This document shows positions 5,981-57,700 of a stretch of 64,000 nucleotides of DNA, in pieces; the first letter of the stretch is position 1; the number at the start of each line of letters is the position of its first letter. The position numbers and the translations under genes were made by a program. Origin of the DNA: Octopus sinensis (lineage: Eukaryota); contig NC_042999.1 in the NCBI RefSeq assembly GCF_006345805.1, positions 154,938,001 to 155,002,000 of the forward strand, read 5' to 3'. The notes under the pieces were generated by a model that worked only from the letters and a program-made list of their open reading frames with translations, made no database searches and was not told the DNA's origin.

Positions 5981-16061
<10,081 letters not shown>

Positions 16062-16215
16062 GTGAGTCATTATTTTTTTTTTTTTCTGAGACTCAAATAT
16101 ACAAAGGATTGTTTGAACCAACCAACTGACATTTCTAGACACTTTAAATATCTTCAAAATGTCATTGCATGGATGAGTGTAAAAATCTTCATGTTTCTTT
16201 TACATTAGCTTCCTC

Positions 16216-16626
16216 GGATCTTATCGGTTTGAACGGCAGTTTTTTCTAGCGGTGTCATATGAAATTGTCACCCATAATTATGACCCTAATATCAATCTAT
16301 TGCATTTCAATCTATTTTAGGGTTAGGGGTGGGAGAAAGGGTAACTTTTTTTCTTCACAAATGTAAATAAACCCAATCTGTTTCTTAAACGAGGGACATA
16401 TTCATACGGCACAGAATGTTTTCACCTCAATAGACGGTCATTAATTGGTTGAAATTGCCGAAATGCAAGAAATTAAAGACCAAATATCTTACAAACTATA
16501 GAATTTTCTCAATAAAGCCGAGAGAAAAAAATGTTTTATAAACACATTCTACCAGTATACGAAGTTTAAATTTTTTTAGTTACCTAGAAATTATGTTAAA
16601 AACTGCCGTTCAAACCGAAAAGATCC
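16216..16626. mobile_element. MITE with GG...CC termini and 8-bp TSD (Merlin-like), family 1
   Basis: TIRs ggatcttatcggtttgaacggcagttttt / aaaaactgccgttcaaaccgaaaagatcc, with perfect TSD gcttcctc. Confidence 0.85.
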
Positions 16627-17261
16627 GCTTCCTCTCTAAGAAGTGACAGAGCCCACTGTTTTCGTAGGCCGTCTGAGACCGATGAGATCATCACTGATTA
16701 TAAATTATATTGATTTCTTTGTGATGATGTGAGACGCCTGGCGGAGTTTCTATTTTATTGATAGGGAGTTATCTCCCTTGTCGGACATTGTTAACAGCGC
16801 ATGACAGGGACTGGGGAAGATATAAATGGTAGTCTCCTGGAATGCGGAAGAGGAGTCACTACCGTGAAGTTCCCCGTACAAGGTGAGAACTTGGAGATTG
16901 ATACGTAATGTTCATTGGTAATCCTGTCTTCTATGGATATTTCCTGGATCACAGTCAAGTTGGATATTACTCGTTGGCGTGAATCCGTTCCTACCAGCTA
17001 ACTGTCAGAGAAATAAACATGGTTGGTGGGGATTTATCAGCGCCTACATGCTGTAACAGAAGTACTGGATGTAGTAGTTTAGAGTGGAAGAGTAGGGTTG
17101 TCATGTGGTTATCAGTTATCACATAGGTCGTCAAATGAATACGGAGCTGCTGGTGGTTTGAGTTAAGTCCCTTTTGTGTATAAATGATGCACAAAACTCA
17201 TGGACAATTAACAGAAACTTTATTTATCGCACAAAACATTTTCCATGCTGTTCTTGAATTA

Positions 17262-21512: not shown

Positions 21513-21612
21513 NNNNNNNNNNNNNNNNNNNNNNNNNNNNNNNNNNNNNNNNNNNNNNNNNNNNNNNNNNNNNNNNNNNNNNNNNNNNNNNNNNNNNNNN
21601 NNNNNNNNNNNN
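21513..21612. other. Assembly gap (100 N)
   Basis: Run of exactly 100 N. Confidence 0.99.
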
Positions 21613-22809: not shown

Positions 22810-23990
22810 ATTGCCATATAATAAACAAAAAGAAGTTCGTGTATAAAATTGATCTTTTTTCTACTTTAATTATTACGTTTATTTTCTTATAAAATACACA
22901 CATACAGGAGGAGTAAATTTCTATATATAATAACACTTTGAATGTGGCTCCCGAGAAAGTCGGGTCTCCCCAACCTCGAGAATCTCTGTTATTTCTTCCA
23001 GCTTGGTCTGCTCGACTTGCATCACAATTCGAAGGCCCTGGCCATGCCAGCTGCGTGGCTCCATTACGGCAGCTTCCAATACGGATATTTTGTCTTCTAG
23101 ACCGATAGTAACTGCCGCGACGAGCCACTCTGGGACTACGTCAGGAGGAATATTACTTATCGTAACTCTTGACGTTCTTTTGCCCATATATATGGGCAGA
23201 AGTACCACCTCTTCGGTTTTAAAGGGTCGACTGAATGGAGTCGGGCTGCCTCTTCTGACTCCATTCTTACTTCGACGGTTGCATACCGCCTACCTCTGTT
23301 TACGTATTTTACCAGGTGCTATATAGGCTTTAGACACTTTTCAATTTCACTCTCCACAACGTAGTCTATCTTCTTTATTTTCACCTTGTATGTCTTATAA
23401 ATGAGAGTTTTCTTCTCTATATATTGTTGAATATCTTTTGGAGAGGCTACTTTAACTTCATTCCCCTCCTTCGTTAATAATTCCTTGTGTTTTTCTAAGT
23501 TGTTCAGGTTTAGCATTTTCACTTTTGTGCCTGCCGCAGCGGCAAAATCCAATTTTCTCGATTATTTTCTCATTTTTTTTTTCTGCTATTTTTCTTTTGT
23601 ACATAAACTTGCAACATAATTTTTTTTTTTTTTTGACGTCGATGGTCTAGGTGGGGTATTCTCAAATTCTTCTTCTATTAATGTTTTTTCCACATTTCTT
23701 TCCACTTCCTCTTCCCTCAATAACCCTTCTATATTTAGTTTATTCGAGCTTGCCATAATGCAAGCTTCCCCACACGGGAGTAAAACACGCAAAAAAAAAA
23801 AAAAATTCAGAAATAATCCAACAATGGTTTCAACAAGTAACCAAATGGTTTCAACAAACTAACACTATCAAAAGTTCAAAACAATAAAACGCCCACCCCC
23901 TCGTAAACAGCAAAACATCCAACAATTAACTCAAGACACAACTTGCACGAACTGGTTAGACTTTGGCATCGATCGGTACCGTACAAGGTG
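22810..23990 (-). mobile_element. ORF1/gag-like-only retroelement unit U1 (frameshifted)
   Basis: KTLIYKTYKVKIKKIDYVVESEIEKCL...EEVVLLPIYMGKRTSRVTISNIPPDV..WLVAAV aligns by eye with the 27552 ORF. Confidence 0.7.
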
Positions 23991-25420
23991 ATTTTTTTAT
24001 TACTTACAGGGGGCTATACAAAGAATGGGACAATACAAAACGTGACAAACATAAACTCGGGGAACTTAAAAATTATGAAAAGAAGATGAATTAAGAAGTG
24101 AAAATTGAAAGAAACGAATGAAAATATGAAAGAATATAAATGAGACGCAATGCCCACTCGAACTCCGAAGTCGAGTGGTTACATTTCGACAATTTTTCTC
24201 TTTTTCATAAATGAATATCACAAAAATTACAATCTAATTTTTCTTTTTAGTCTCTCATATTCCATTATGGGTAGGTGGACTCTTATGCAGCCGACACCAT
24301 TTCACCAGTTTTACATTTTTCGCAAATCCCTCCATGAATTTGTCATATCTCTCCTGAGGTATCAAAATACCTCCGTCATTTACATCAAAACTGTCTCCCG
24401 ACAGCCTCACTCTTACCATTTCCTTCACTTTCGCTATTTTTCTCTCCGCGTCCGCACTTTTTTTTTATATATTACAAAGGCTCCCTCAAATTTATACAGT
24501 TCGTTTTCTGTTTCTTCCTCTTGCATATTCTTAGTTTCAAGTTTCTCCGGAACTTTTCGGTTTGAACGGCAGCTTTTTCTAGCGGCGTCATATGAAACTG
24601 TCACCCATAATTATGACTCTAGTATCGATCTATTGCATTTCAATCTGTTTTAGGGTTAGGGTTAGGGGTGGGAGGAAGGATATCTTTTTTTTCTTCAGAA
24701 ATGTAAATAAACCCAATCTGTTTCTTAAACGAGGGACATATTCATACGGCGCAGAATGTTTTCACCTCAATAGACGTCATTGATTGGTTGAAATTGCAGA
24801 AATTGAAGAAAAAAACAACAAATATCTTACAAACTATAGAATTTTCTCAATAAAACCAAGAGAAAAAGATGTTTTATAAACACATTCTACCAGTATACGA
24901 AGTTTAAATTTTTTTAGTTACCTGGAATTAATTTTTAAAAACTGTCGTTCAAACCGAAAAGATCCGTTTTTCCTTACCTTTCTTGTTTTCTACTGAGTGT
25001 TCCCTTTTCTTAGACCTCTTTCTTCTTTTGGGGCTAATAACTCCCTCAATCTCTTCCTTTGATTCTTTCACTTCACTTTTCTTCTTCTCTTTATCTTTCT
25101 GGGTACGGTCCTTCTCTATTTTGTCTTCTTCTCTGTTTGTAATTTCTCCTGCATCTGCTCTTTCTTTTGCTCTTTCATTTGTTCCTTTTCCACCGTCTTT
25201 TCGCTGTGTGTGAATTCGTATTAGGGGCACTCGGTCCTTATGGTGTCCTCTCACTCGCATAAGTAGCAATTTGGTTTCCTTCCCTCCACCACTACCACAT
25301 TCAGCGTCATCTCGTCCTCAACCTCAATCTGATAAGGGATTCCTTCGATATCCTCAAATGTAGCGATAAGCCACATTTCAACTCCAAACGCCCACCAGTT
25401 CAACATATCCGTTTCACCAA
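23991..25420 (-). mobile_element. ORF1-only retroelement unit U2 (3' part: zinc knuckle, K/E-rich linker, C-terminal domain, 3' tail)
   Basis: VVVEGRKPNCYLC..GH..TEC (frameshifted CCHC), hairpin at 24154-24178 and a tail at 23991-24050 similar to SINE tail B. Interrupted by the MITE at 24549-24965. Confidence 0.68.
24549..24965. mobile_element. Merlin-like MITE family 1, second copy
   Basis: Near-identical to 16216-16626. TSD gtttctcc / gtttttcc. Confidence 0.85.
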
Positions 25421-25935
25421 CTATACAATGGTAGAAAGAAAGAGGAATAATGTGGAATCTCCATCTAAAAGCCCAAAGAAGAAAAGAAAGGCACAGGAGA
25501 ACAAGAACGAGAAGAGAAGGAATGAGGAGCCAAGTGCGGAACGAACACAAAGGCCGTTGCATTCAACTAGTAAGGAGGAGGGAGGACGGAAGAAGAGGAG
25601 ACATGAAAGTGAGAAGGAAGGACAAACAGAGACGGGAATGCCAGCAACAGAAGAGGAAGAGAGTGGTGAAGAACAGCAGAGAGAGCCACCGAAGGAGAAA
25701 TATGAAAGAGCTGTGATATTCTTTCTTTTACTTCTTTCAGTCATGCGACTGTAGCCATGCTGGAGCACCGCCTTTAGTCGAACAAATCGACCCCAGGACT
25801 TATTCTTTGTAAGCCTAGTACTTATTCTATCGGTCTCTTTTGCCGAACCGCTAAGTTACGGAGGCATAAACTCGCCAGCATCGGTTGTCAAGCGATGTTG
25901 GGGGAGGGGGGACAAACACAGACACACAAACATAT

Positions 25936-25966
<31 letters not shown>

Positions 25967-26624
25967 CGATGGGCTTCTTTCAGTTTCCGTCTACCAAATC
26001 CACTCACAAGGCTTTGGTGGGCCCGAGTAGAAGACACTTGCCCAAGGTACCACGCAGTGGGACTGAACACGGAACCATGTGGTTCGTAAGCAAGTTACTT
26101 ACCGTAACGCCACTCATACGCCTATGAGTGGCATATGTTACAAAAAAAAAGTGTAAAGATAGAAAAGAAAATTTCAAAAATGAAACATGTCATAAGGGTT
26201 AAAGTGGCTGACAGTGAGTACAATCGAGATGAGAAAGCGGTACTGTTGGAGGAAGAAAAAACAAGAAGGTTGCAGGAAATATTTGGCGACAGGATAGTGA
26301 TAACAAGAATTCGATTTCGTTACGATGAATTGCCACCAGTGATAATATTTGACGATTTGGTGAAACATATGGTGTGACTTTGTGAGGATCTTTAAACAAA
26401 AGGAAAACTAACAAGATATAAGACTGATAAGTACACGCTTTATTTAAAAAAAACAGTAAAATGAAACTACTTGCTTACAGTGGGGCAAGCAAGTCATTTC
26501 ATCTTCATTTTCATTTATATTCATAATTCATTCGTTATATGTTTTTATGAACCCCAATGTATTGTTTTGTCTGTCTTTTGTGTTGTTCCTTCTCTATGAG
26601 GCCTTGTGCCTAATTGAAGAAATA
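25421..26624 (+). mobile_element. ORF1-only retroelement unit U3 (3' part) interrupted by SINE
   Basis: K/E-rich linker (25428-25720), C-terminal domain EKKISKMKHVIRVKVADSEY...YDELPP, hairpin at 26469-26494, tail ending aagaaata at 26624. Confidence 0.65.
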
Positions 26625-27447
26625 AGGACGTTGGTGTTGTCAGTGTTTTATTTAATTAGTGAGTTGGAAGTGTATATGCTCCTTGTGAGTACCGTTTTGT
26701 TTAACTGATATTTGTTGAATTGTTGGAGTGTTGTTACCTGTTGAACTTGTTGTTACGGCTTTTTAATTTTTTCCCCCCATTTATGGGTGAAGTGGTGAAT
26801 AATATGGAAAGTACACTAGTGCAAGCGGGTAGTTATGCTGCGGTGACTGGCAAAAGCCAGTCAGCGGAGGGACTGCAAGTTACAGAAATTAAATTACAGG
26901 AGAAAAACTTCAAAAATACTATGATTTATTAAGAAAGGAGGGAGATAGCCTAAGGTTGACGCTCCTCAAACAAGTAACAGAAAGAACGGAGAAGGTAACT
27001 ATCGTGTATAGAACATTGAAAATTGCAACAAAAAAGGTGGAAATAGCAGCGGTGGAGGCGGTCGAGGAGTGCCTCAGAGAAATTAAGAACGTTGAGACGT
27101 TCTACACCAGAGGAAGGAAATACGGCACAGTGGTGGTACGCTTCGTGAATAAAGAAGCGAGGAAATACTCCACTGTGCCTTTGAGATCTGCAGAGTGGGC
27201 GCTGCTACCGACTTACTGTGGCAAACGTGTGACCAGAGTAAGAATAAGTAGAGTGCCCCCAGAAATTGATGAGGCGTGGCTGGTGGAAGCCATCCTCTTC
27301 AATAGAGAGGAAGACACGGAGATGTTCATTTTCATGTGTCATTCATTATATCATATTTCATTTTTATATTTTTAATTGTTATATATCCCCACATGTGCTG
27401 TAGTGTTCCCCTCTGTGTAATGCCTTTAAGGCAATTTAAAAGAAATA
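26625..27447 (+). mobile_element. ORF1-only retroelement unit U4 (internally deleted)
   Basis: TIVYRTLKI...GRKYGTVVVRF...WALLPTYCGKRVTRVRISRVPPEIDEAWLVEAI, joined directly to a 3' tail ending aagaaata. Confidence 0.68.
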
Positions 27448-27551
27448 AAGAAGCTTGCTTCCCGCGCATGCGTCGGTCTATTCGTTGTGTTGATTTTTGA
27501 CGAGACGGACGGAATTTTTTGAGCTGCTTGTCAGCGGTTTGTCGGTGAGAG

Positions 27552-28607
27552 TTGTACCGGTGGAAAGGAATGTATTCGGACCTTAGCGAGTATGGACTGT
27601 CCTCAGCGGAGGAGGAGCTCGTTAAGGCGGTAAATAGAATGGACGAGCATTTGGAAAGAGTAAAGAGTTTTGCTGAGGCTGCAGAGGTGAAGAAAAGGGA
27701 GGTGGACCTTGCCGGACTAACACAGAAGGTGGGCACTGACGTAAAGTTATTACCCCCAAAAAGGGTCATGGAAAGTATGGAAAAGAAGGCTATTACCTAC
27801 AAGATGTACTCAGTGGAGAGTAGGTCGGTGGAGCGGATGGAGATAGAAAAAGTAGAAAAAGCATTGAAGGGACTTTCGAAGGAAGTGACATACATAGCGA
27901 AAGGAAATGGATATGGGACGGTAGTTGTCCAGTTTAGGACAGCGGAGGAGGCAAAGTGGCTGGCGAGTACAACGGTGAGAACGGAGGAAGTAGTTCTTCT
28001 ACCCACGTACCTTGGAAGAAAGACTTCTAAGGTGAAGGTAGAAGGAATCCCACCCAATATAGAAGTGGCTTATGTTGCGGCAGCCGTCCTCGTTGGTAGT
28101 GAAGAGGAGGTGGCTGTCCTCCAAACCACAGAGACGGAGGAAGGAGGATATAGAGGAAACACATAGGAAATCATCATACAAGTGGAGGCGAAGCAACTGG
28201 AAAATTTGGCGGAGACAGTGACGTTGGGAGAAATAGTATTGAGAGTATGGGTAGAGGGCAGAGTTCCGCGATGCTTTAAATGTGGCCAAAAAGGCCACAT
28301 TAGAGCTCACTGCCTTCTACAGAAGAAAACGACAGAAGAAGCGGTGCTGGAGACGGAGGAGAAAAAGAAAGAAGTACAGATAGATGGAAGGAATAAGGAG
28401 GATGAATGGACAGTGACAGAGAATAAAAGGAAAAAGAGAAAGAAGAGGAAGAACAGTCAGTGTGATGTGGGACCCCAGACCAACTCCATCCCACCCAAGA
28501 CCACTCAGATCCACCATCCCCATACACACACCAAACCCACCCACTCCCTCTCCCCACAGGAAAAAAGATTAGACACCACAAAATTTACAAGACCCCTCCC
28601 CCGCTGA
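27552..28607 (+). pseudogene. L1/Tx1-type ORF1 (gag-like, RRM-like region + CCHC zinc knuckle), unit U5, one in-frame stop
   Basis: ORFs 27552-28166 and 28182-28607 are in the same frame, separated by a single TAG at 28164-28166. Contains CFKCGQKGHIRAHC and a basic NLS-like tract. No endonuclease or RT follows. Confidence 0.8.
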
Positions 28608-28849
28608 TAAAGGTTACGTGTACATGTAACTCAGTGATGAGGAAAGCGGCAAAAGAAAGACTAGATCAAAGACTAAAGAGGACTCAGGACTCAGAGGTGG
28701 CGGTTGGTGTTACTCAGTGTGGGGTGAGTAACACACTTTTCATATTCTCATTTCTCAGTTATCATTCATGTATCAGTACAACCTGAATATAATTTTTTCC
28801 TCTATACTTTTATTTATATTTTTAGTTCCGATTTTTTTTTTGGGGGGGG

Positions 28850-29460
28850 TAGTCGATTAGATAGAACTCAGTACGCAACTGGTACTTAATTTATCGATCT
28901 CGAAAGGATGAAAGGCAAAGTCGGAATTTGAACTCAGAACGTAAAGGCAGATGAAACATCGCTAAGTATTTCGCCCGGCGTGCTAACGTTTCTCCCAGCT
29001 CGCTGCCTTAAGAAAGAAATATAAATATTCTTTTCTACTCTAGGCACAAGGCCCGAAATTTTGGGGGAAGAGGCAAGTCGATTAGATCGACTCAGTACGC
29101 AACTGGTACTTAATTTATCGACCCCGAAAGAATGAAAGGCAAAGTCGACCTCGGCGGAATTTGAACTCAGAACGTAGCGGCAGACGAAATACTGCTAAGC
29201 ATTTCGCTCGGCGTGCTAACGTTTCTTATTTCTTTATTGCCCACAAGGGGTTAAACATAGAGGGGACAAACAAGGAGAGACAAAGGGACTAAGTCGATTA
29301 CATCGACCCCAGTGCGTAACTGGTACTTATTTAATCGACCCCGAAAAGATGAAAGGCAAAGTCGACCTCGTCGGAATTTGAACTCAGAACGTAAAGACGG
29401 ATGATACACTGCTAAGCATTTCGGCTAGCGTGCTAACGTTTCTGCCAGCTCGCTGCCTTT
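28850..29460 (-). mobile_element. Tandem array of three Nin/Deu-domain SINEs (tails A and B)
   Basis: Repeated cgaaaggatgaaaggcaaagtcgacctcggcggaatttgaactcagaacg units. Confidence 0.8.
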
Positions 29461-29545: not shown

Positions 29546-29763
29546 GGTACCACTTAAGAAGAGTGGTCCCGGTGCGCGCACTCGCGCAAGCTAGTTGTGA
29601 CTAGTCGATCCTTACTTTGCGTTTTTGTGTTTTATTTACTATGTTTAAAAAAATTATTTACTTTGCTAGGTAGTCGTTGTAGGATCGACTAGTCACGACT
29701 AGCTAGCGCGGATGCGCAAGTACGCGAATGTGCGCACCGGGACCACTCTTCTTAAGTGGTACC
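29546..29763. mobile_element. Merlin-like MITE family 2
   Basis: TIR ggtaccacttaagaagagtggtcccggtgcgc and its inverse, TSD gtaatatc / ttaatatc. An inverted partial copy interrupted by a SINE lies at about 31503-32104. Confidence 0.82.
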
Positions 29764-50100: not shown

Positions 50101-53100
50101 TTCATGACAAAGAATTCATCAAGGTATCTTTTTATTTCATCCAAGGAATTGAAATTTTTACCATTAAGACTATTCTGCAGAGACCTGAATAAGTGGACAT
50201 CCGAAGGAGCAATATCTGGCGAATATGGATGGTGGGGTAACACATCCCAGCCGAGCTGCAGCAATTTTTGTCTGGTTCCCAAAGCATCAAGCGCCGAAAA
50301 TGAACTTTCTTATCTTCCATTTTAAAGGGTTACAGAATTAACACAGGTTATAGGAACATAAACCTTCTTTCACAAAAAGATAGCTTAACCCTTTAGCATT
50401 TAAACCGGCCATATCCAGCCCAAATTTTCTACTTCTTTTACGTTCAAACCATCTAGATCTGGCCTCTCACTCATATCCTACAATGTCATCCTCAAAATAA
50501 ACCATCACATCATCAAATTCTCAGAGCTACAAGATAATGCAGGATTAACTCAAAACAATGTGAATGAAAAAGCATTAGATTTGACAGAGTAATCTGAACA
50601 CTAAAGGGTTAAACTGTGCTCTAAATGGAGGTGTAGTCAAATCCTATTTTATGGACTCAACCATGTTCTAAAATAAGTTGAAAGGTAAGCTACTATAAAT
50701 TGGCATGAACTTTCCGGACAACCCAATAATAAACACTAACTTAATAAATACAAACATTTTACAAAATCCTTCATTATTTTCAAAATTAATTAAAAGAAAG
50801 ACAATGAATTTCAACAGGAATACAGTAATAAAAAAAGGTTAAAAGAACATCATTTTTACTTCTGAGTTTGATTTGTGAGTTCCCTTCTGGTAAATTCATC
50901 TCCAAAGTCTACAACATTAAGTTGTCGGGAGAATAAATTAATAACACTTCCAATGTAGAGGTCTTCTAAACTGATATTGTCACAAACAGTTCGCCTTAGG
51001 AAAACGCGATGCTTCTTGTATTCGTACTGGAAATAAATATTATTTAAAAAAATCATATTTCTTTGTATTAGAAAAATACTTTTTGTTTTTATTAGTTTTT
51101 GTTTGTTTTTATTAGTTTTATTAGTGCGGGTGGCACGTAAAAAGCACACACTACACTCACGGAGTGGTTGGCGTTAGGAAGGGCATCCAGCTGTAGAAAC
51201 ATTGCCAGATAAGACTGGAGCCTGGTGCAGCCTTCTGGCTTCCCAGATCCCCGGTCAAACCGTCCAACCCATGCTAGCATGGAGAACGGACGTTAAACGA
51301 TGATGATGATGATGATGAACATATACCGTACTTAAACATGTATAAGGAACCCTTTTTTTGTCAAAAATTAGGTTAACAAAATATGGGAGTTTCTTATACA
51401 TGGATAGTATTATAATCCCTTACAAAACTGTTTTTCCAAATTTTAAGCTCCCAAAATTAGGGGGTTCCTTATACACGTTAAAATCGTGGCACACTGTCGG
51501 TTATGACGATGAGGGTTCCAGTTGACCCGATCAACAGAACAGCCTGCTTGTGAAATATTAACGTCTAAGTGGCTGAGCACTCCACCGACACGTGTACCCT
51601 TAAAGTAGTTCTCAGGGAGATTCAGCATTACACAGAGTGTGACAGGTCTGGCCCTTTGAAATACAGGTACAACAGAAACAGGAAGAAAGAGTGAGAGAAA
51701 GTTGTGGTGAAAGGGTACAGCAGGGTTCGCCACTACCCTCTGCCAGAGCCATGTGGGACTTTAGGTGTTTTCGCTCAATAAACACTCACAACACCCAGTC
51801 TGGGAATCGAAACCGCGATCCCACGACCACGAGTCCGCTGCCCTAACCACTGGGCCATTGCACCTCCACACACATTAAAATACGGTAGTAACAATAAAAT
51901 AGTGTGAATAAGCATGCTATAAGATAATGGGGTTCAGTCCCACAGTGTGACACCTTGGACAAGTGTCTTTTATTAAAACCCTGAACCAACCAAGGCCTTG
52001 TGGGTTGATTTAGTAGATGGAAACAGTCACTAAGCAGAATAAGATCTGCTTTCCTTCTCTGCCAAAAGGTGGTGTGTTGCTCTTCACTATAGACTTGGTA
52101 GACAGCTGGATTCATGTTATATGAGACAGCAGCTGCTCAACAGAATCCCGCAAACCAGTAACAATATTAATATGGACATCCAACAGAGAAACACAACTCG
52201 CATTACACACAAACAAACACTGTGGATATGTGATCTATCTTTGCCAAATTCAGGGGAAAATGCATTGAGCAGAACAGGTCTGTATACGCAGTGTTCATAG
52301 ACTTCACAAAGGTTTGACACAACACACAATACAAACACCAATACAACAAAAGACTTGTGCTAAAGCCAATAACAAAACAAACCAATGCAATACACTACCG
52401 GGAAGAGTCTGGTTATCCCCCAACACCAATAAAAACAAAAAACACACCTCAGCAACACGTGATGCAGTAGAAATTTGCCTGAAACTATCAAATATTGAAT
52501 GATGATGATGATTGATAGTGATGATAAATGCCCTGATGCAGTACCAGGCAGTGGCTCTCATGGCATCTGATCTTAACTGATTGGAAGTGTTATCATGTAC
52601 ATTGTTTTGTCATGGTATAAAATATTCTGCTCAATACCACAAATTTGCTTGTCAATTGTTTGACCTTAACTAGCTGAGCATGTCCCTTAGTGGCTTACAA
52701 TTTGTGCATTCCTGATCAGGAGCAGGAATAGTGGAGGATAGCTATGGGTCGAGAGGAATTCTTTGGGGTTTGAATAATTCACCCCTGGAAACATGGGTGT
52801 TTCATTCATCATTCTTAACCAGCCCTTATTCAAGGACTTTTTGAGTGGGATGGGCTACTTGACCTGAAAAAAATTCTAACTGGACTCCAGCTACAAGGTC
52901 ATGTGCTGTTTATTCTGATATGAAATTACCATGCCATGCACATACGGTTGTGATGCATGTGCCTGGTGTACCCTTATCAGATAGGTAGTCATGATGGGTA
53001 TATTGGACTTTGTATATTTGTACCCCAATATCACTTTGATGGTATGGACTGCCCTCTCACCCAATGAATAATAATGCCCTGATACAGTACCAGGCAGTAG

Positions 53101-53697: not shown

Positions 53698-54020
53698 GTC
53701 CTCTCAATGATTAGTCAGAGATGATTTTTAAAATGAGAATATCTGAAATACTTGAATGCTCTCACAAATTAGAATACTAAAGATGAACCTGACTGCTCCC
53801 AAAAATTAAGTAAAAAACAGGAAAAATAATCCAGAATCCTTGTCTGGCATCGGATCAATCCCAAGATCTATTAAGTTTGTGCCAGTCAGGAGGCCAAATA
53901 TCCCTAAAAGTTTCAGCCGAATCCATCCGGCAGTTCTTGAGATATCTTGTCCACAGACAAACAGACATGACCGAAAACAATACCTCCACCTTCACTAAGG
54001 CAGAGGTAATAATACTTATA

Positions 54021-54778: not shown

Positions 54779-57700
54779 ATAGTGGGGGAGCATCACAGCC
54801 ATGTATTGAGAGGAATGCTTTGGGGTTTGAATAATTCGCCTCTGGAAACATGGGTTTTTCGTTCAACATACTTAAACAACCCTTATTCAGGGACCTTTTG
54901 AGCGGGATGGGTTACTCGACGTGAAGAAAATTCTAACTGGGCCCCACCTACAAGGTCATGTGCTGTTTATCTTGATATGAGATCACCATGTCATGCACAT
55001 ATGGTTGTGATGCATGTGCCTAGTGTACCCTTATCAGACGGGTAGTCATGATGGGTATACTGGGCTTCGTATATTTTACCCCAGTGTCGCTTTGATGGCA
55101 TGCACTGCTCTCTCACTCAATAATAATAATAATAATAATAATGGTTTCAAATTTTGGCACAAGGCCAGCAATTTTAGTGGTGGGGTGGGGGTCAGTCAAT
55201 TTTATTCATTCCAGTACTTCATTGGTACTTTATTTTATTAACCCACAATGGTTGAAAGGCAAAATTTTAGTAGTAGTAGTAGTAGTAGAAGTAGTAGCAG
55301 CAGCAGCAGTAGTGGTGGTGGTAGCAGCAGTAACAACTACAACAACTATTTTTAATTTAAGCACAAGACCAGGAATTTCAGGAGAAAGGGGCAGTTGATA
55401 TCAAGGTGAGATTTTGAAGTGTATTTCTCTGAATTTCGATGGAAATAGTTCATACTTCTCTCTCAATGCCACTGACCCCATTCTTCCATTATTCACCTGT
55501 TGTTTGTTTTTTGTTTTTTTGTTTTTTTATTGAGAACAAAAGAAATAGCACAAAATTAAACTAACATTTCATATTATGTTTCCCACAACCTACCAATATA
55601 TCAACATCTACTGTCTCCCTACCACCACCACCACCACCACCACCACCCGCCATCACACACAGCTGTTACATAGTGTTGTTGGTTTGTTTCTATTTCTTTT
55701 GTCCATAAATTCAGTCTTTCTAAGACAAACAACCATTAAACCTTGAATAATTATATATTTACTACTGTTTAGCTCCAGGGAAAAAAATCTTTTCCAGCTA
55801 GCTACTGGCACACAGTTTCTGTCCTGGGAGTGATAAACTCCCTTGCTCATTCCATACGGGCATGAGCTGCGTGTCGGAAGCCAGCTGGAAAAGATGTTTT
55901 CCTGGGGCTAAACAGTAGTGACATCATCCTGTGTAGGACTGTCACATTCTGTTGACAAATTAACTGTTCAGTACTGTAATTGCATATCTGTCACTCAGAG
56001 ATTTAAAAAAATTGTTTTTCTCTTTAATCATATATTTCTTATGGTCCCTCTTTCTTGTTAACTTTCTCACTCCCTCTCTCTTTCTCTCTGGTTGGGCAAC
56101 CATGTACCTCCTCTACAGCAAAACATCTTTTTTTTATTTCTTTATTACCCACAAGGGGCTAAACATAGAGGGGACAAACAAGGACAGACAAACGGATTAA
56201 GTTGATTACATTGACCCCAGTGCATAACTGGTACTTAATTTATCGACCCCGAAAGGATGAAAGGCAAAGTCAACCTCGGAAGAATTTGAACTCAGAACGT
56301 AACGGCAGACGAAATACCTATATCTTTACTACCCACAAGGGGCTAAACATAGAGGGGAAAAACAAGGACAGACAAAGGGGTTAAGTCGATTACATCGACC
56401 CCAGTGCGTAACTGGTACTCAATTTATCGACCCCAAAAGGATGAAAGGCAAAGTCGACCTCGGAGGAATTTGAACTCAGAACATAACGGCAGACGAAATA
56501 CCGATAAGCATTTCGCCCGGTGTGCTAACGATTCTGCCAGCTCGCCGCCTTCGTTTCTGTCTCTGTTGCACTGTAATCATTCATCATCTGACATAAGATC
56601 ACCACCTCCAATGCCCCCCTCCTCCTCTCAAAGGATCTTTGTCTTACAAAGTTATTTGGCGGCCCTGTCAGTGCAGGCACCATTTAAAAAGCATCCAATC
56701 CACATTGTAAATGGTTGGCATTTGGAAAGGCATCCAGCTGTAAAAACCTTGCCAAAACTAACCTCGCCTGTGCTGGTGCCATGTAAAAAGCACTCAGCCA
56801 ACTGTGCAGGGTGGTTGGTGTTAGAAAGGGTACCCAGCTATAAAAGCCATGCCAAGAGAGACACAGAAGTATGGTGCAGGTTTCTTATTTCTTTATTACC
56901 CACAAGAGGTTAAACAAGGACGGACAAAGGGATTAAGTCTATTACATCGACCCAAGTGCGTAACTGGTACTTAATTTATTGACCTTTCAAATACAGGTAC
57001 AACAGAAACAGGAAGAAAGAGTGAGAGAAAGTTGTGGTGAAAGAGTACAGCAGGATTTGTCACCATCCCCTGCCAGAGCCGCATGGAGCTTAAGGTGTTT
57101 TCGCTCAATAAACACTCACAACCCCCAGTCTGGGAATCGAAACCACAATCCTATGACTGCGAGTCCGCTGCCCTAACCACTGGGTCATTGCGCCTCCACA
57201 TAGCTAAAATATGTATATAGAAAAACTGTCTATGTACAGCTAATGTATGCTTATAGTTAATGTATACATATAGCTAATGTATGCATATAGTTAATGTATG
57301 CATATAGCTTAATGTATGCATATAACTAATGTATGTGTATAGCTAATATATAAGTATAGAGAAACTATGGGAAGCCAGTAAGGGCAAAAATCACTACATC
57401 AATATTCTAGTTTTGTGAATCTTGACTCCTCAATAACTTCATTAGATTTAATTATACTTACCATTTCCACAGACTTGTCTTTAGGGTAGTAGAGAAACTG
57501 GTAGCGCCGTGTCAGCGAAGCAACAGCATCGTACCAGTCGACAACGAAGCAGTAACGCTTACAATCTTCCTCCTGCACAACAAAATGAGAGTGAGATAAT
57601 TTTTAAAAAAAAGAAAGATGGAACATGTCTGTCTGTCTTGTGAGCCGCTACAGCAATGATGTTTGTCTCACTCCAACATACATAAATGTTTTAACACAAA

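Follow-up and report, generated by a model that had tools for sequence, protein, structure and literature searches.

Introduction

How do diverged relatives of one kind of retroelement come to lie head to tail, on both strands, in a short segment that holds no reverse transcriptase (RT)? The question is raised by 22.8–28.8 kb of a 64,000-nucleotide stretch of the Octopus sinensis genome (contig NC_042999.1, positions 154,938,001 to 155,002,000 of the forward strand; the whole stretch is referred to as the window, and coordinates are given within it). A preliminary description, made from the sequence alone, had recognized five homologous units in this cluster (U1 to U5), each encoding parts of ORF1, the first open reading frame (ORF) of long interspersed nuclear elements (LINEs), with none encoding ORF2, the frame that contains the APE endonuclease and the RT. 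It proposed an ORF1-only retroposon group that inserts preferentially next to its own relatives or, alternatively, a transposon trap.

The cluster is very probably made up of fragments of fixed-site ORF1-only retrotransposons (half elements) and one LINE stump, the half elements having likely been copied in trans by L1/Tx1-type LINEs that share their insertion site and 3′ tail. This explanation is carried by discrete element ends, duplications of 15–16 bp, two target repeats, a full LINE at the site in a short interspersed nuclear element (SINE), a shared tail, and purifying selection on ORF1.

Results

Dispersed Families of ORF1-Only Elements

The core of U5 was searched in the genome (G000), which yielded 150 scored matches from 11,086 candidates. 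Forty of these were fetched as 10-kb loci, 12 for long open frames, four for two close hits, and 24 by rank; they contained intact ORFs of about 410 amino acids and several diverged families. Families A–F were defined from the fetched loci; three more came from the window units, G from U3/U4, H from U1, and J from U2. A census was then compiled over 80 selected 10-kb loci, with ORF2 scored within 1.6 kb of a unit, one antisense artefact (L102) removed, and four A/F rows relabelled as family H. It comprised 94 units without ORF2 (A 35, B 9, D 1, E 26, F 2, G 16, and J 5), 12 with ORF2 (C 8 and H 4), and two further units at a locus edge. ORF2 accompanied 0 of 44 A/B units, 0 of 26 E units, and 0 of 5 J units. 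Twenty arbitrary loci, serving as a control, contained one unit in total.

Complete relatives of U5 measure 1.44–1.77 kb between duplicated sites. ORF1 identity between half-element lineages is 24–63%, and most copies carry stops or frameshifts. A tree supports the families well and leaves their deep branching order unsupported. Named homologues of the ORF1 protein all come from Octopus or Argonauta, and some copies are annotated as genes. The proposal of an ORF1-only retroposon group is borne out by these data: the group is dispersed and octopod, with discrete 5′ and 3′ ends, target duplications, and head-to-tail piles.

Five unnamed ENA proteins (P0149, P0173, P0197, P0222, and P0264) match the whole ORF1 core, and many others (P0007–P0099) match ORF2 at about 50%, so the lineage may extend beyond octopods. 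A top match to the ORF1 profile, P0127 (CAI9742213.1), is labelled “EPM2A-interacting 1-like” by its source, probably a misannotation.

A Fixed Site in the tRNA-Like Head of a SINE

End alignment of family A copies showed that they split an abundant SINE at a single position within its tRNA-like head. Among copies chosen by protein homology, 27 of the 31 A-type 5′ ends carried the site motif, as did 28 of the 32 3′ ends of types A and B. Genome-wide, the pattern of tail followed by site occurred 282 times exactly and 1,365 times when known variants were allowed, and reversed controls gave 0; the empty site, in one variant, had 26,305 exact occurrences. In 16 complete insertions the SINE head lay to the left and the remainder of the SINE to the right, with identical duplicated runs of 8–16 bp. 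Eleven of these insertions, each splitting one SINE, were ORF1-only elements (1.44–2.27 kb) and five were LINEs (5.4 kb). The duplication at this first target is 15–16 bp long.

Targets of this kind numbered 17 in 200 kb, about one per 12 kb. Published octopus SINEs include OK, OR1, and OR2. When the SINE head was compared with 15 distinct tRNAs of the genome, tRNA-Ala (z 6.9) and tRNA-Lys (z 5.2) stood out, and the comparison did not distinguish a single parent tRNA. Real tRNA genes were also considered as targets and rejected: in a small sample, the motif was present in 0 of 15 distinct tRNAs and ORF1 lay beside 0 of 30 tRNA loci.

A Full-Length LINE with the Same Site and Tail

The first 30 of the 282 exact junctions comprised 19 that end an ORF1-only element, 10 that end ORF2, and one short piece. 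Five of the ORF2 loci, when extended, proved to be 5.4-kb elements in which ORF1, APE, RT, and zf-RVT lie between duplicated sites of 15–16 bp. The domains of their ORF2 are Exo_endo_phos, RVT_1, and a C-terminal zf-RVT. The best solved relative of this ORF2 is L1 ORF2p (E 9e-55 over APE and RT), and R2 proteins match at 1e-18 over the RT only, a coarse placement because few LINE clades are represented in the PDB; 120 listed ORF2 relatives are unnamed or hypothetical. On the ORF2 sequence the LINE appears to belong to the L1/Tx1 group. The ORF1 of the LINE defines family C and shares about 36% identity with U5; with a zf-CCHC match (E 2e-5) and an alignment to the modelled two-RRM protein described below, it is of type I (RRM plus CCHC).

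The exact 5′ junction of this LINE occurs 64 times in the genome. The first 30 copies all begin at the site, 29 of them against the SINE head and one against the tail of a half element. A one-base, extra-T variant of the target stands at this junction in 10 of 30 copies at unrelated loci (L297–L326), and its recurrence suggests that the LINE RNA likely begins with target-like sequence. At the other end, half elements terminate in a short hairpin and a few A-rich bases, with the duplicated site directly after. The hairpin is common to the LINE and the half elements, and compensatory changes are seen in three of its four pairs. Because site, duplication length, and 3′ tail are the same, and by analogy with TRE5-A.2 and with SINE–LINE pairs, the 5.4-kb APE–RT LINE is the likely helper of the half elements.

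A second abundant SINE-like repeat, with a 184-bp unit often arranged in head-to-tail pairs, has copies in the window at 56136–56208 and 14259–14331 (− strand) and over 28837–29460. Its tail is nearly identical to that of the helper LINE over about 30 bases, and L1/Tx1-type LINEs may also mobilize this repeat.

A Predicted Two-RRM Protein under Purifying Selection

The structure of an intact family A ORF1 was modelled from a 21-row alignment. The model had a mean predicted local distance difference test score of 80.6 and contained two predicted domains resembling RNA recognition motifs (RRMs). Modelled residues 69–156 match RRMs (best Z 9.6, root-mean-square deviation 2.5, 80 aligned residues), the next domain is similar to the first, and the core ends with a CCHC knuckle. 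In a Foldseek search tandem-RRM proteins headed the list. The fold searches returned generic RRM proteins; L1 ORF1p and ZCCHC3 were absent among the matches listed, which excludes neither. Across 21 ORF1 members, zf-CCHC was detected in 20 and RRM_3 in two, and Transposase_22 in none at E ≤ 1; a sequence-profile search of the PDB yielded knuckles only. The predicted RRMs together with the CCHC knuckle make octopus ORF1 a type I ORF1, the kind that the available text of PMC5203782 associates with Tx1.

Ratios of nonsynonymous to synonymous substitution rates (dN/dS), estimated by a simple counting method, were 0.17–0.23 for A versus B, 0.11–0.28 for E (15 pairs), and 0.20–0.47 for J, with dS reaching about 2 between ORF1-only subfamilies. 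Judged from these sequence comparisons (dN/dS 0.11–0.28), the ORF1 of ORF1-only elements is under purifying selection.

A Second Target in a HINE-Like Repeat

The second target, a repeat about 370 bp long, combines palindromic subterminal inverted repeats with a hairpin at its 3′ end. It was read by eye from L164, L157, and the 3′ flanks of G elements, no single complete empty copy having been recovered. Similar features, palindromic subterminal inverted repeats and a 3′ stem-loop, are described for the non-autonomous Helentrons termed HINEs in the available text of PMC4067079. Elements of family G insert on one strand of this HINE-like repeat: 17 of 25 G tails, the window supplying one of the 25, run into its 3′ end, and most others run into another G-type copy.

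Family H, which has ORF1 and ORF2 and whose APE is 40–51% identical to that of the helper LINE, uses a second site on the opposite strand, about 180 bp away. Its 5′ start coincides with that site in L156, L157, L175, and the window, and a 3′ junction at the site is found in L211. Empty and filled states of both sites were observed reciprocally. In L175, H and G lie back to back on one repeat in the same arrangement as in the window; the divergent layout of the cluster is explained by G and H using opposite-strand sites of a single HINE-like repeat. Family J shows duplications in several copies, and 4 of 11 J 5′ ends, inspected by eye, follow a relative's tail. The evidence for the second target is thinner than that for the first. 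The HINE-like repeat of L211 apparently also contains two − strand insertions, first an ORF1 unit and next a full LINE, with about 10 bp between them.

Mixed Arrays at Regenerated Sites

Since the duplication restores the target site, tandem growth is to be expected, and array units are indeed joined with the site motif at their junctions. At C7:10.442–10.472 Mb (L270, L050, and L271), 12 ORF1 units of at least five kinds occupy 21 kb on one strand with no ORF2 among them; a 13th unit begins at the edge, and the sequence just upstream contains a full LINE and one more ORF1 unit. Of the 40 protein-picked loci, 13 contained two or more units, always in the same orientation, a biased count in that four loci had been picked for close hits and a fifth has its neighbour 13 kb away. 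The figure is 9 of 36 without the four close-hit picks, 2 of 20 in the batch chosen by rank only, and 0 of 20 for arbitrary loci.

Of the seven youngest A copies, two stand immediately upstream of a LINE and two more immediately upstream of another half element. Half-element subfamilies have their own 5′ site variants; by these and the extra-T variant of the LINE, part of the 5′ “duplication” is sequence that travels with the element. L031 and L032 share a 3,549-bp block of an A and an E element that is 98.5% identical across the internal junction. At C3:70.87 Mb an old B unit is followed by a young LINE, and such old–young pairs imply that sequential insertion occurs. Sequential insertion into favoured loci, template jumping, and the copying of read-through dimers are all possible sources of the arrays. 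The insertion preference for relatives that had been suspected is real in one respect, as occupied sites gain more insertions than chance predicts; the position itself is set mainly by a fixed sequence in two unrelated repeats.

Anatomy of the Cluster

ORF1-type homology in the cluster falls into pieces at 22957–23560 (−), 25218–25421 (−), 26789–27327 (+), and 27528–28322 (+). The protein of U5 resembles those of U1 (E 1e-28) and U4 (E 1e-21), and the C-terminal domains of U2 and U3 align at E 2e-9; Pfam returned only a weak CCHC match on the window fragments. The homology search agrees with the preliminary description that U1 and U2 lie on the − strand and U4 and U5 on the + strand, and that neither APE nor RT is present: ORF2 homology was sought across the window and none was found in 22.8–28.8 kb. 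The pieces are not five equal units, however, and every one of them is broken.

U1 (22957–23944, −) is the 5′ stump of an autonomous family H LINE, consisting of the 5′ UTR (untranslated region) and an ORF1 that stops just before the CCHC knuckle. Over 1,037 bp it shares 85% identity with L137/L156 and L138/L157, both of which continue into the CCHC knuckle and APE. The statement that all units are ORF1-only consequently applies to U2–U5 and fails for U1, whose family runs into an APE–RT ORF2 (L137/L156, L138/L157, L139/L158, and L175). Continuation of relatives into ORF2, which would reduce the units to deletion remnants, was found for U1 only, and the core idea holds for four of the five units. 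Next to U1 is a 46-bp remnant of the HINE-like target repeat (23945–23990, +), with the family H site at its left edge on the − strand. The same sequence adjoins the H 5′ end in L156, L157, and L175 and is unbroken in L161, L163, L164, and L166.

U2 (23991–25422, −) is a 5′-truncated ORF1-only element of family J that retains the CCHC region, K/E linker, C-terminal domain, 3′ UTR hairpin, and tail; it is 82–84% identical to the copies L140–L155, with which it shares the tail end. Foreign to the element is a miniature inverted-repeat transposable element (MITE) at 24540–24969, with 30-bp terminal inverted repeats (arms 24548–24577 and 24937–24966). A second copy of this high-copy MITE, 90% identical, lies at 16207–16630.

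U3 and U4 had been described as separate units and turn out to be complementary halves of two tandem copies of family G, since full G copies elsewhere in the genome consist of a U4-type 5′ half followed by a U3-type 3′ half. U3 (25419–26624, +) is the 3′ half, with K/E linker, C-terminal domain, hairpin, and tail, and is 86–88% identical to L122/L165. It is interrupted by a tRNA-headed SINE (25724–26125, −) of the family that U5 targets, here with the site empty; this SINE has many copies in the window, and its head aligns to tRNAs of the genome. The duplicated site of the second target (26625–26639, +) stands between the two G copies, and the identical 15-mer flanks G copies on both sides. 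U4 (26640–27323, +) comprises the 5′ UTR, the first RRM, and the beginning of the second, and its homology to G ends at 27323. The tail once assigned to U4 (27322–27447, +) comes from a U5-type, family A element whose 3′ end is fused to U4; this segment aligns with the A-type tails of L051, L053, L057, L060, L064, and L068 and is 87% identical to that of L068.

After the fused tail comes the duplicated site of the first target, in an older variant of the SINE head (27448–27463, +), and then U5 (27464–28778, +), a family A ORF1-only element with its ATG at 27570, an in-frame stop at 28164–28166, and the CCHC knuckle at 28272–28313. U5 is the most complete unit in the window and is 89% identical to L048, although its frame is broken near the C terminus and its own 3′ terminus is lost after 28778. 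At none of the three joins where the next unit had been thought to start directly after a tail does it do so: a duplicated target (26625–26639 and 27448–27463) or the 46-bp repeat remnant (23945–23990) intervenes.

Hairpins were confirmed 3′ of the ORF ends of U2 (z −2.7), U3 (z −3.6), and U5 (z −2.4). The terminus said to be shared by U2, U3, and U4 stands insofar as its hairpin is common to genomic relatives, with the compensatory changes noted above; folded alone, the three tails were no better than shuffles (z −0.2, −1.8, and +0.9). Short-read contigs of run X16, which may be the source sample, span the U1/U2, U2/U3, and U3/U4 joins unchanged. The join at 27322 was covered by none of the X16 contigs listed, and no empty allele was seen among those placed on the cluster, where placement is swamped by repeats.

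Discussion

A Model for Half-Element Retrotransposition

A simple model would be that a half element is transcribed as a 1.5–2.3 kb RNA and translated into its own two-RRM/CCHC protein, which would likely coat that RNA in cis. The ORF2 protein of the helper would recognize the 3′ hairpin tail, nick the site, and prime reverse transcription there. The duplication would leave a usable site at each end, so that later elements could be added head to tail. In the window, a HINE-like repeat would have received an H LINE (U1, −) and two G copies (U3 and U4, +). Insertion of a 5′-truncated J copy (U2) and deletions would then have removed the 5′ half of U3 together with most or the middle of the repeat. 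A further deletion, which may have accompanied insertion of a 5′-truncated A element, would have fused U4 to the A tail upstream of U5, the fused tail and U5 representing a neighbouring SINE-targeted A array. U1 and U5 would have lost their 3′ parts later.

Several points weigh against this account or limit it. The order of events at the locus is a reconstruction, and we infer mobilization by the LINE in trans from sequence correspondence and analogy. At the G site a helper LINE was sought and none was found, with ORF2 upstream of 0 of 25 G tails. The H site is defined by four 5′ junctions, the window included, and one 3′ junction (L211); a search for the H 3′ junction pattern gave four matches against three in controls, of which only L211 is informative, and the 3′ end of the L175 LINE does not enter the HINE-like repeat. 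For family J, a common flank was sought at 16 3′ ends and none was seen. Within older B and G pairs dN/dS is 0.62–0.63, and the low ratios between lineages could partly predate the loss of ORF2. Finally, arrays are commoner than random site choice or simple site regeneration predicts, because the LINE offers 64 sites compared with at least 26,305 empty ones, yet two of the seven youngest A copies adjoin a LINE.

This excess bears most directly on how arrays form. Possibly, though we would not favour it, they arise mainly in single events, the RT jumping from the target-like 5′ end of one RNA to the tail of the next or copying read-through dimers whole. The extra-T variant in 10 of 30 LINE copies, the subfamily-specific 5′ variants, the position of four of the seven youngest A copies directly upstream of another element, and the A-plus-E block of L031/L032 (3,549 bp, 98.5%) would all follow, and R2 proteins are reported to template-jump into head-to-tail products (PMC11371274, available text). 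The decayed and young units joined at C3:70.87 Mb, however, need separate events; two A–LINE pairs contain different LINE variants; and locus-specific site variants repeat at neighbouring junctions, as sequential insertion predicts. A single master A–LINE dimer was rejected on the same difference between the two pairs. A broader reading, rather doubtful at present, is that an old and still active octopod radiation of half-LINEs parasitizes site-specific Tx1-type LINEs, outnumbers them about 2 to 1 at the shared SINE-head site, keeps a selected ORF1 in many deep lineages, and homes to occupied sites far above chance through target-like RNA 5′ ends that let the RT chain elements. If true, it would describe a layered parasite system in which the SINE is the target, the LINE the helper, and the half-LINEs the riders, and one that by nature carries coding RNAs of 1.5–2.3 kb to a specific site.

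The remaining explanations fare worse. It is improbable that the locus is a trap, such as a piRNA cluster, that collects transposons: three target systems within 6 kb are unusual and occupied sites gain insertions more often than expected, but arrays occur on many contigs, every junction falls on a site defined by sequence, no further unit occurs in the remaining 58 kb of the window, and SINE targets every 12 kb or so make a neighbouring SINE array nothing rare, so that a trap is not needed. The view that deletions in full LINEs left the ORF1-only copies as dead remnants, never mobile as such, is true of U1 and agrees with the broken state of all five window units. As a general account it is highly improbable and largely refuted, given family-specific lengths, own 3′ UTRs, duplications on both sides, 97.8–98.9% identity between unrelated loci, an ORF1 only 24–37% identical to that of the LINE or to one another, and ORF2 in 0 of 44 A/B and 0 of 26 E units. 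Least credible of all is a domesticated host gene family of the ZCCHC3 or L1TD1 kind spread by duplication. Purifying selection and the annotation of some copies as genes would suit it, as would a ZCCHC3-type cluster at 0.89 in an Atlas search, a lead only; against it, copies share no flanks beyond the target repeat, have target duplications, and mostly carry stops or frameshifts.

Relation to Known Elements

The Tx1 and HAL1 leads of the preliminary description were apt. HAL1 has an L1-type poly(A) tail and is described as needing ORF1p in cis for movement, and human HAL1 copies are fossils. It is a non-autonomous L1 derivative that encodes ORF1p only and arose several times (PMC5753468, available text). 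Octopus half elements likewise encode ORF1p and no ORF2p and have intact element ends. Their ORF1 is of the RRM and CCHC type I, in contrast to the Transposase_22 type of mammalian L1; their 3′ end is a hairpin tail in common with the helper, not poly(A); and their insertion is sequence specific and builds mixed arrays. The dN/dS of 0.11–0.28 between ORF1-only subfamilies is compatible with a cis requirement for ORF1p, of which it is an indirect measure. The octopus elements work like HAL1 but are not HAL1, since ORF1 type and tail do not match.

Tx1 LINEs (Tx1L in Tx1D, Keno, Kibi/Koshi, and crocodilian Tx1-Mar) are APE–RT elements that prefer a site in another repeat, and SINEU shares a Tx1 target, its tandem copies sandwiching the duplication, as in SINEU-3 (PMC4494074, available text). 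The octopus system is similar in that an APE–RT LINE targets a repeat, a non-autonomous partner uses the same target, and a duplication lies between tandem copies. It differs in its targets, a tRNA-SINE head and a HINE-like repeat, compared with the DNA transposons, LTR (long terminal repeat) elements, snRNA genes, and microsatellites named for Tx1 in that text, and its partners are protein-coding half-LINEs, not SINEs. Dictyostelium TRE5-A.2 keeps ORF1, lacks ORF2, and is trans-mobilized to its helper's target in a manner that requires a 3′ module, according to the available text of PMC3159450. Octopus half elements also keep ORF1 without ORF2 and have the same target as a LINE. However, TRE5-A.2 is a deletion derivative of its helper, whereas the octopus elements form many deep lineages (24–63% ORF1 identity), and it targets a position near tRNA genes via TFIIIB, as far as that source describes it, whereas they target a DNA sequence. 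Drosophila HeT-A is ORF1-only and forms head-to-tail arrays mixed with RT-coding partners; it is telomeric and Jockey-related. The octopus elements are interstitial, of L1/Tx1 type, and separated at every junction by a duplicated site.

None of the ingredients is without precedent, and by these analogies the combination is likely a site-specific version of the half-L1 principle. An annotation of O. vulgaris counts 80 L1-Tx1 families, 13 of them recently active (PMC13282606, available text), and these families may include the helper and perhaps also the half elements; the text and one supplement of that paper contain no mention of ORF1, HAL1, or the target. In the literature searched, outside which lie subscription journals, Repbase, and Dfam, no account was found of cephalopod Tx1 elements that are ORF1-only or SINE-targeted.

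HAL1 raises the question of why an element that is not autonomous should keep ORF1. The octopus has young copies (98–99% identical) together with a helper that matches them and a target that is fixed and readable, and this makes any cis requirement for ORF1, tail recognition, and trans-mobilization testable. According to the available text of PMC2666806, pol II transcripts need ORF1p, and this link supplies a ready hypothesis for ORF1 retention. A LINE that targets the SINE head also bears on how octopus SINE copies become disabled. A sequence-specific APE–RT that moves coding RNAs in trans, if that is what the LINE does, would be of interest for targeted insertion tools. For annotation, the practical point is that half-element ORFs are being called as host genes.

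Other Features of the Window

At 21513–21612, 1.3 kb to the left of the cluster, the assembly has a gap of about 100 N. The Rfam matches in the window were miRNA-shaped chance matches only, on a MITE outside the cluster; their source is a small element at 29546–29763 with 41-bp terminal and 37-bp inner inverted repeats. The sole ORF2 match in the window is a 47-codon scrap at 52022–52162 (−) that resembles the C terminus of a LINE ORF2. A copy of the HINE-like target repeat outside the cluster (53698–54006, −), 82% identical over 315 bp to the L164 copy, has an empty H site and serves as an internal control. Precisely at the G insertion site, an ATT microsatellite takes the place of the 3′ end of this copy.

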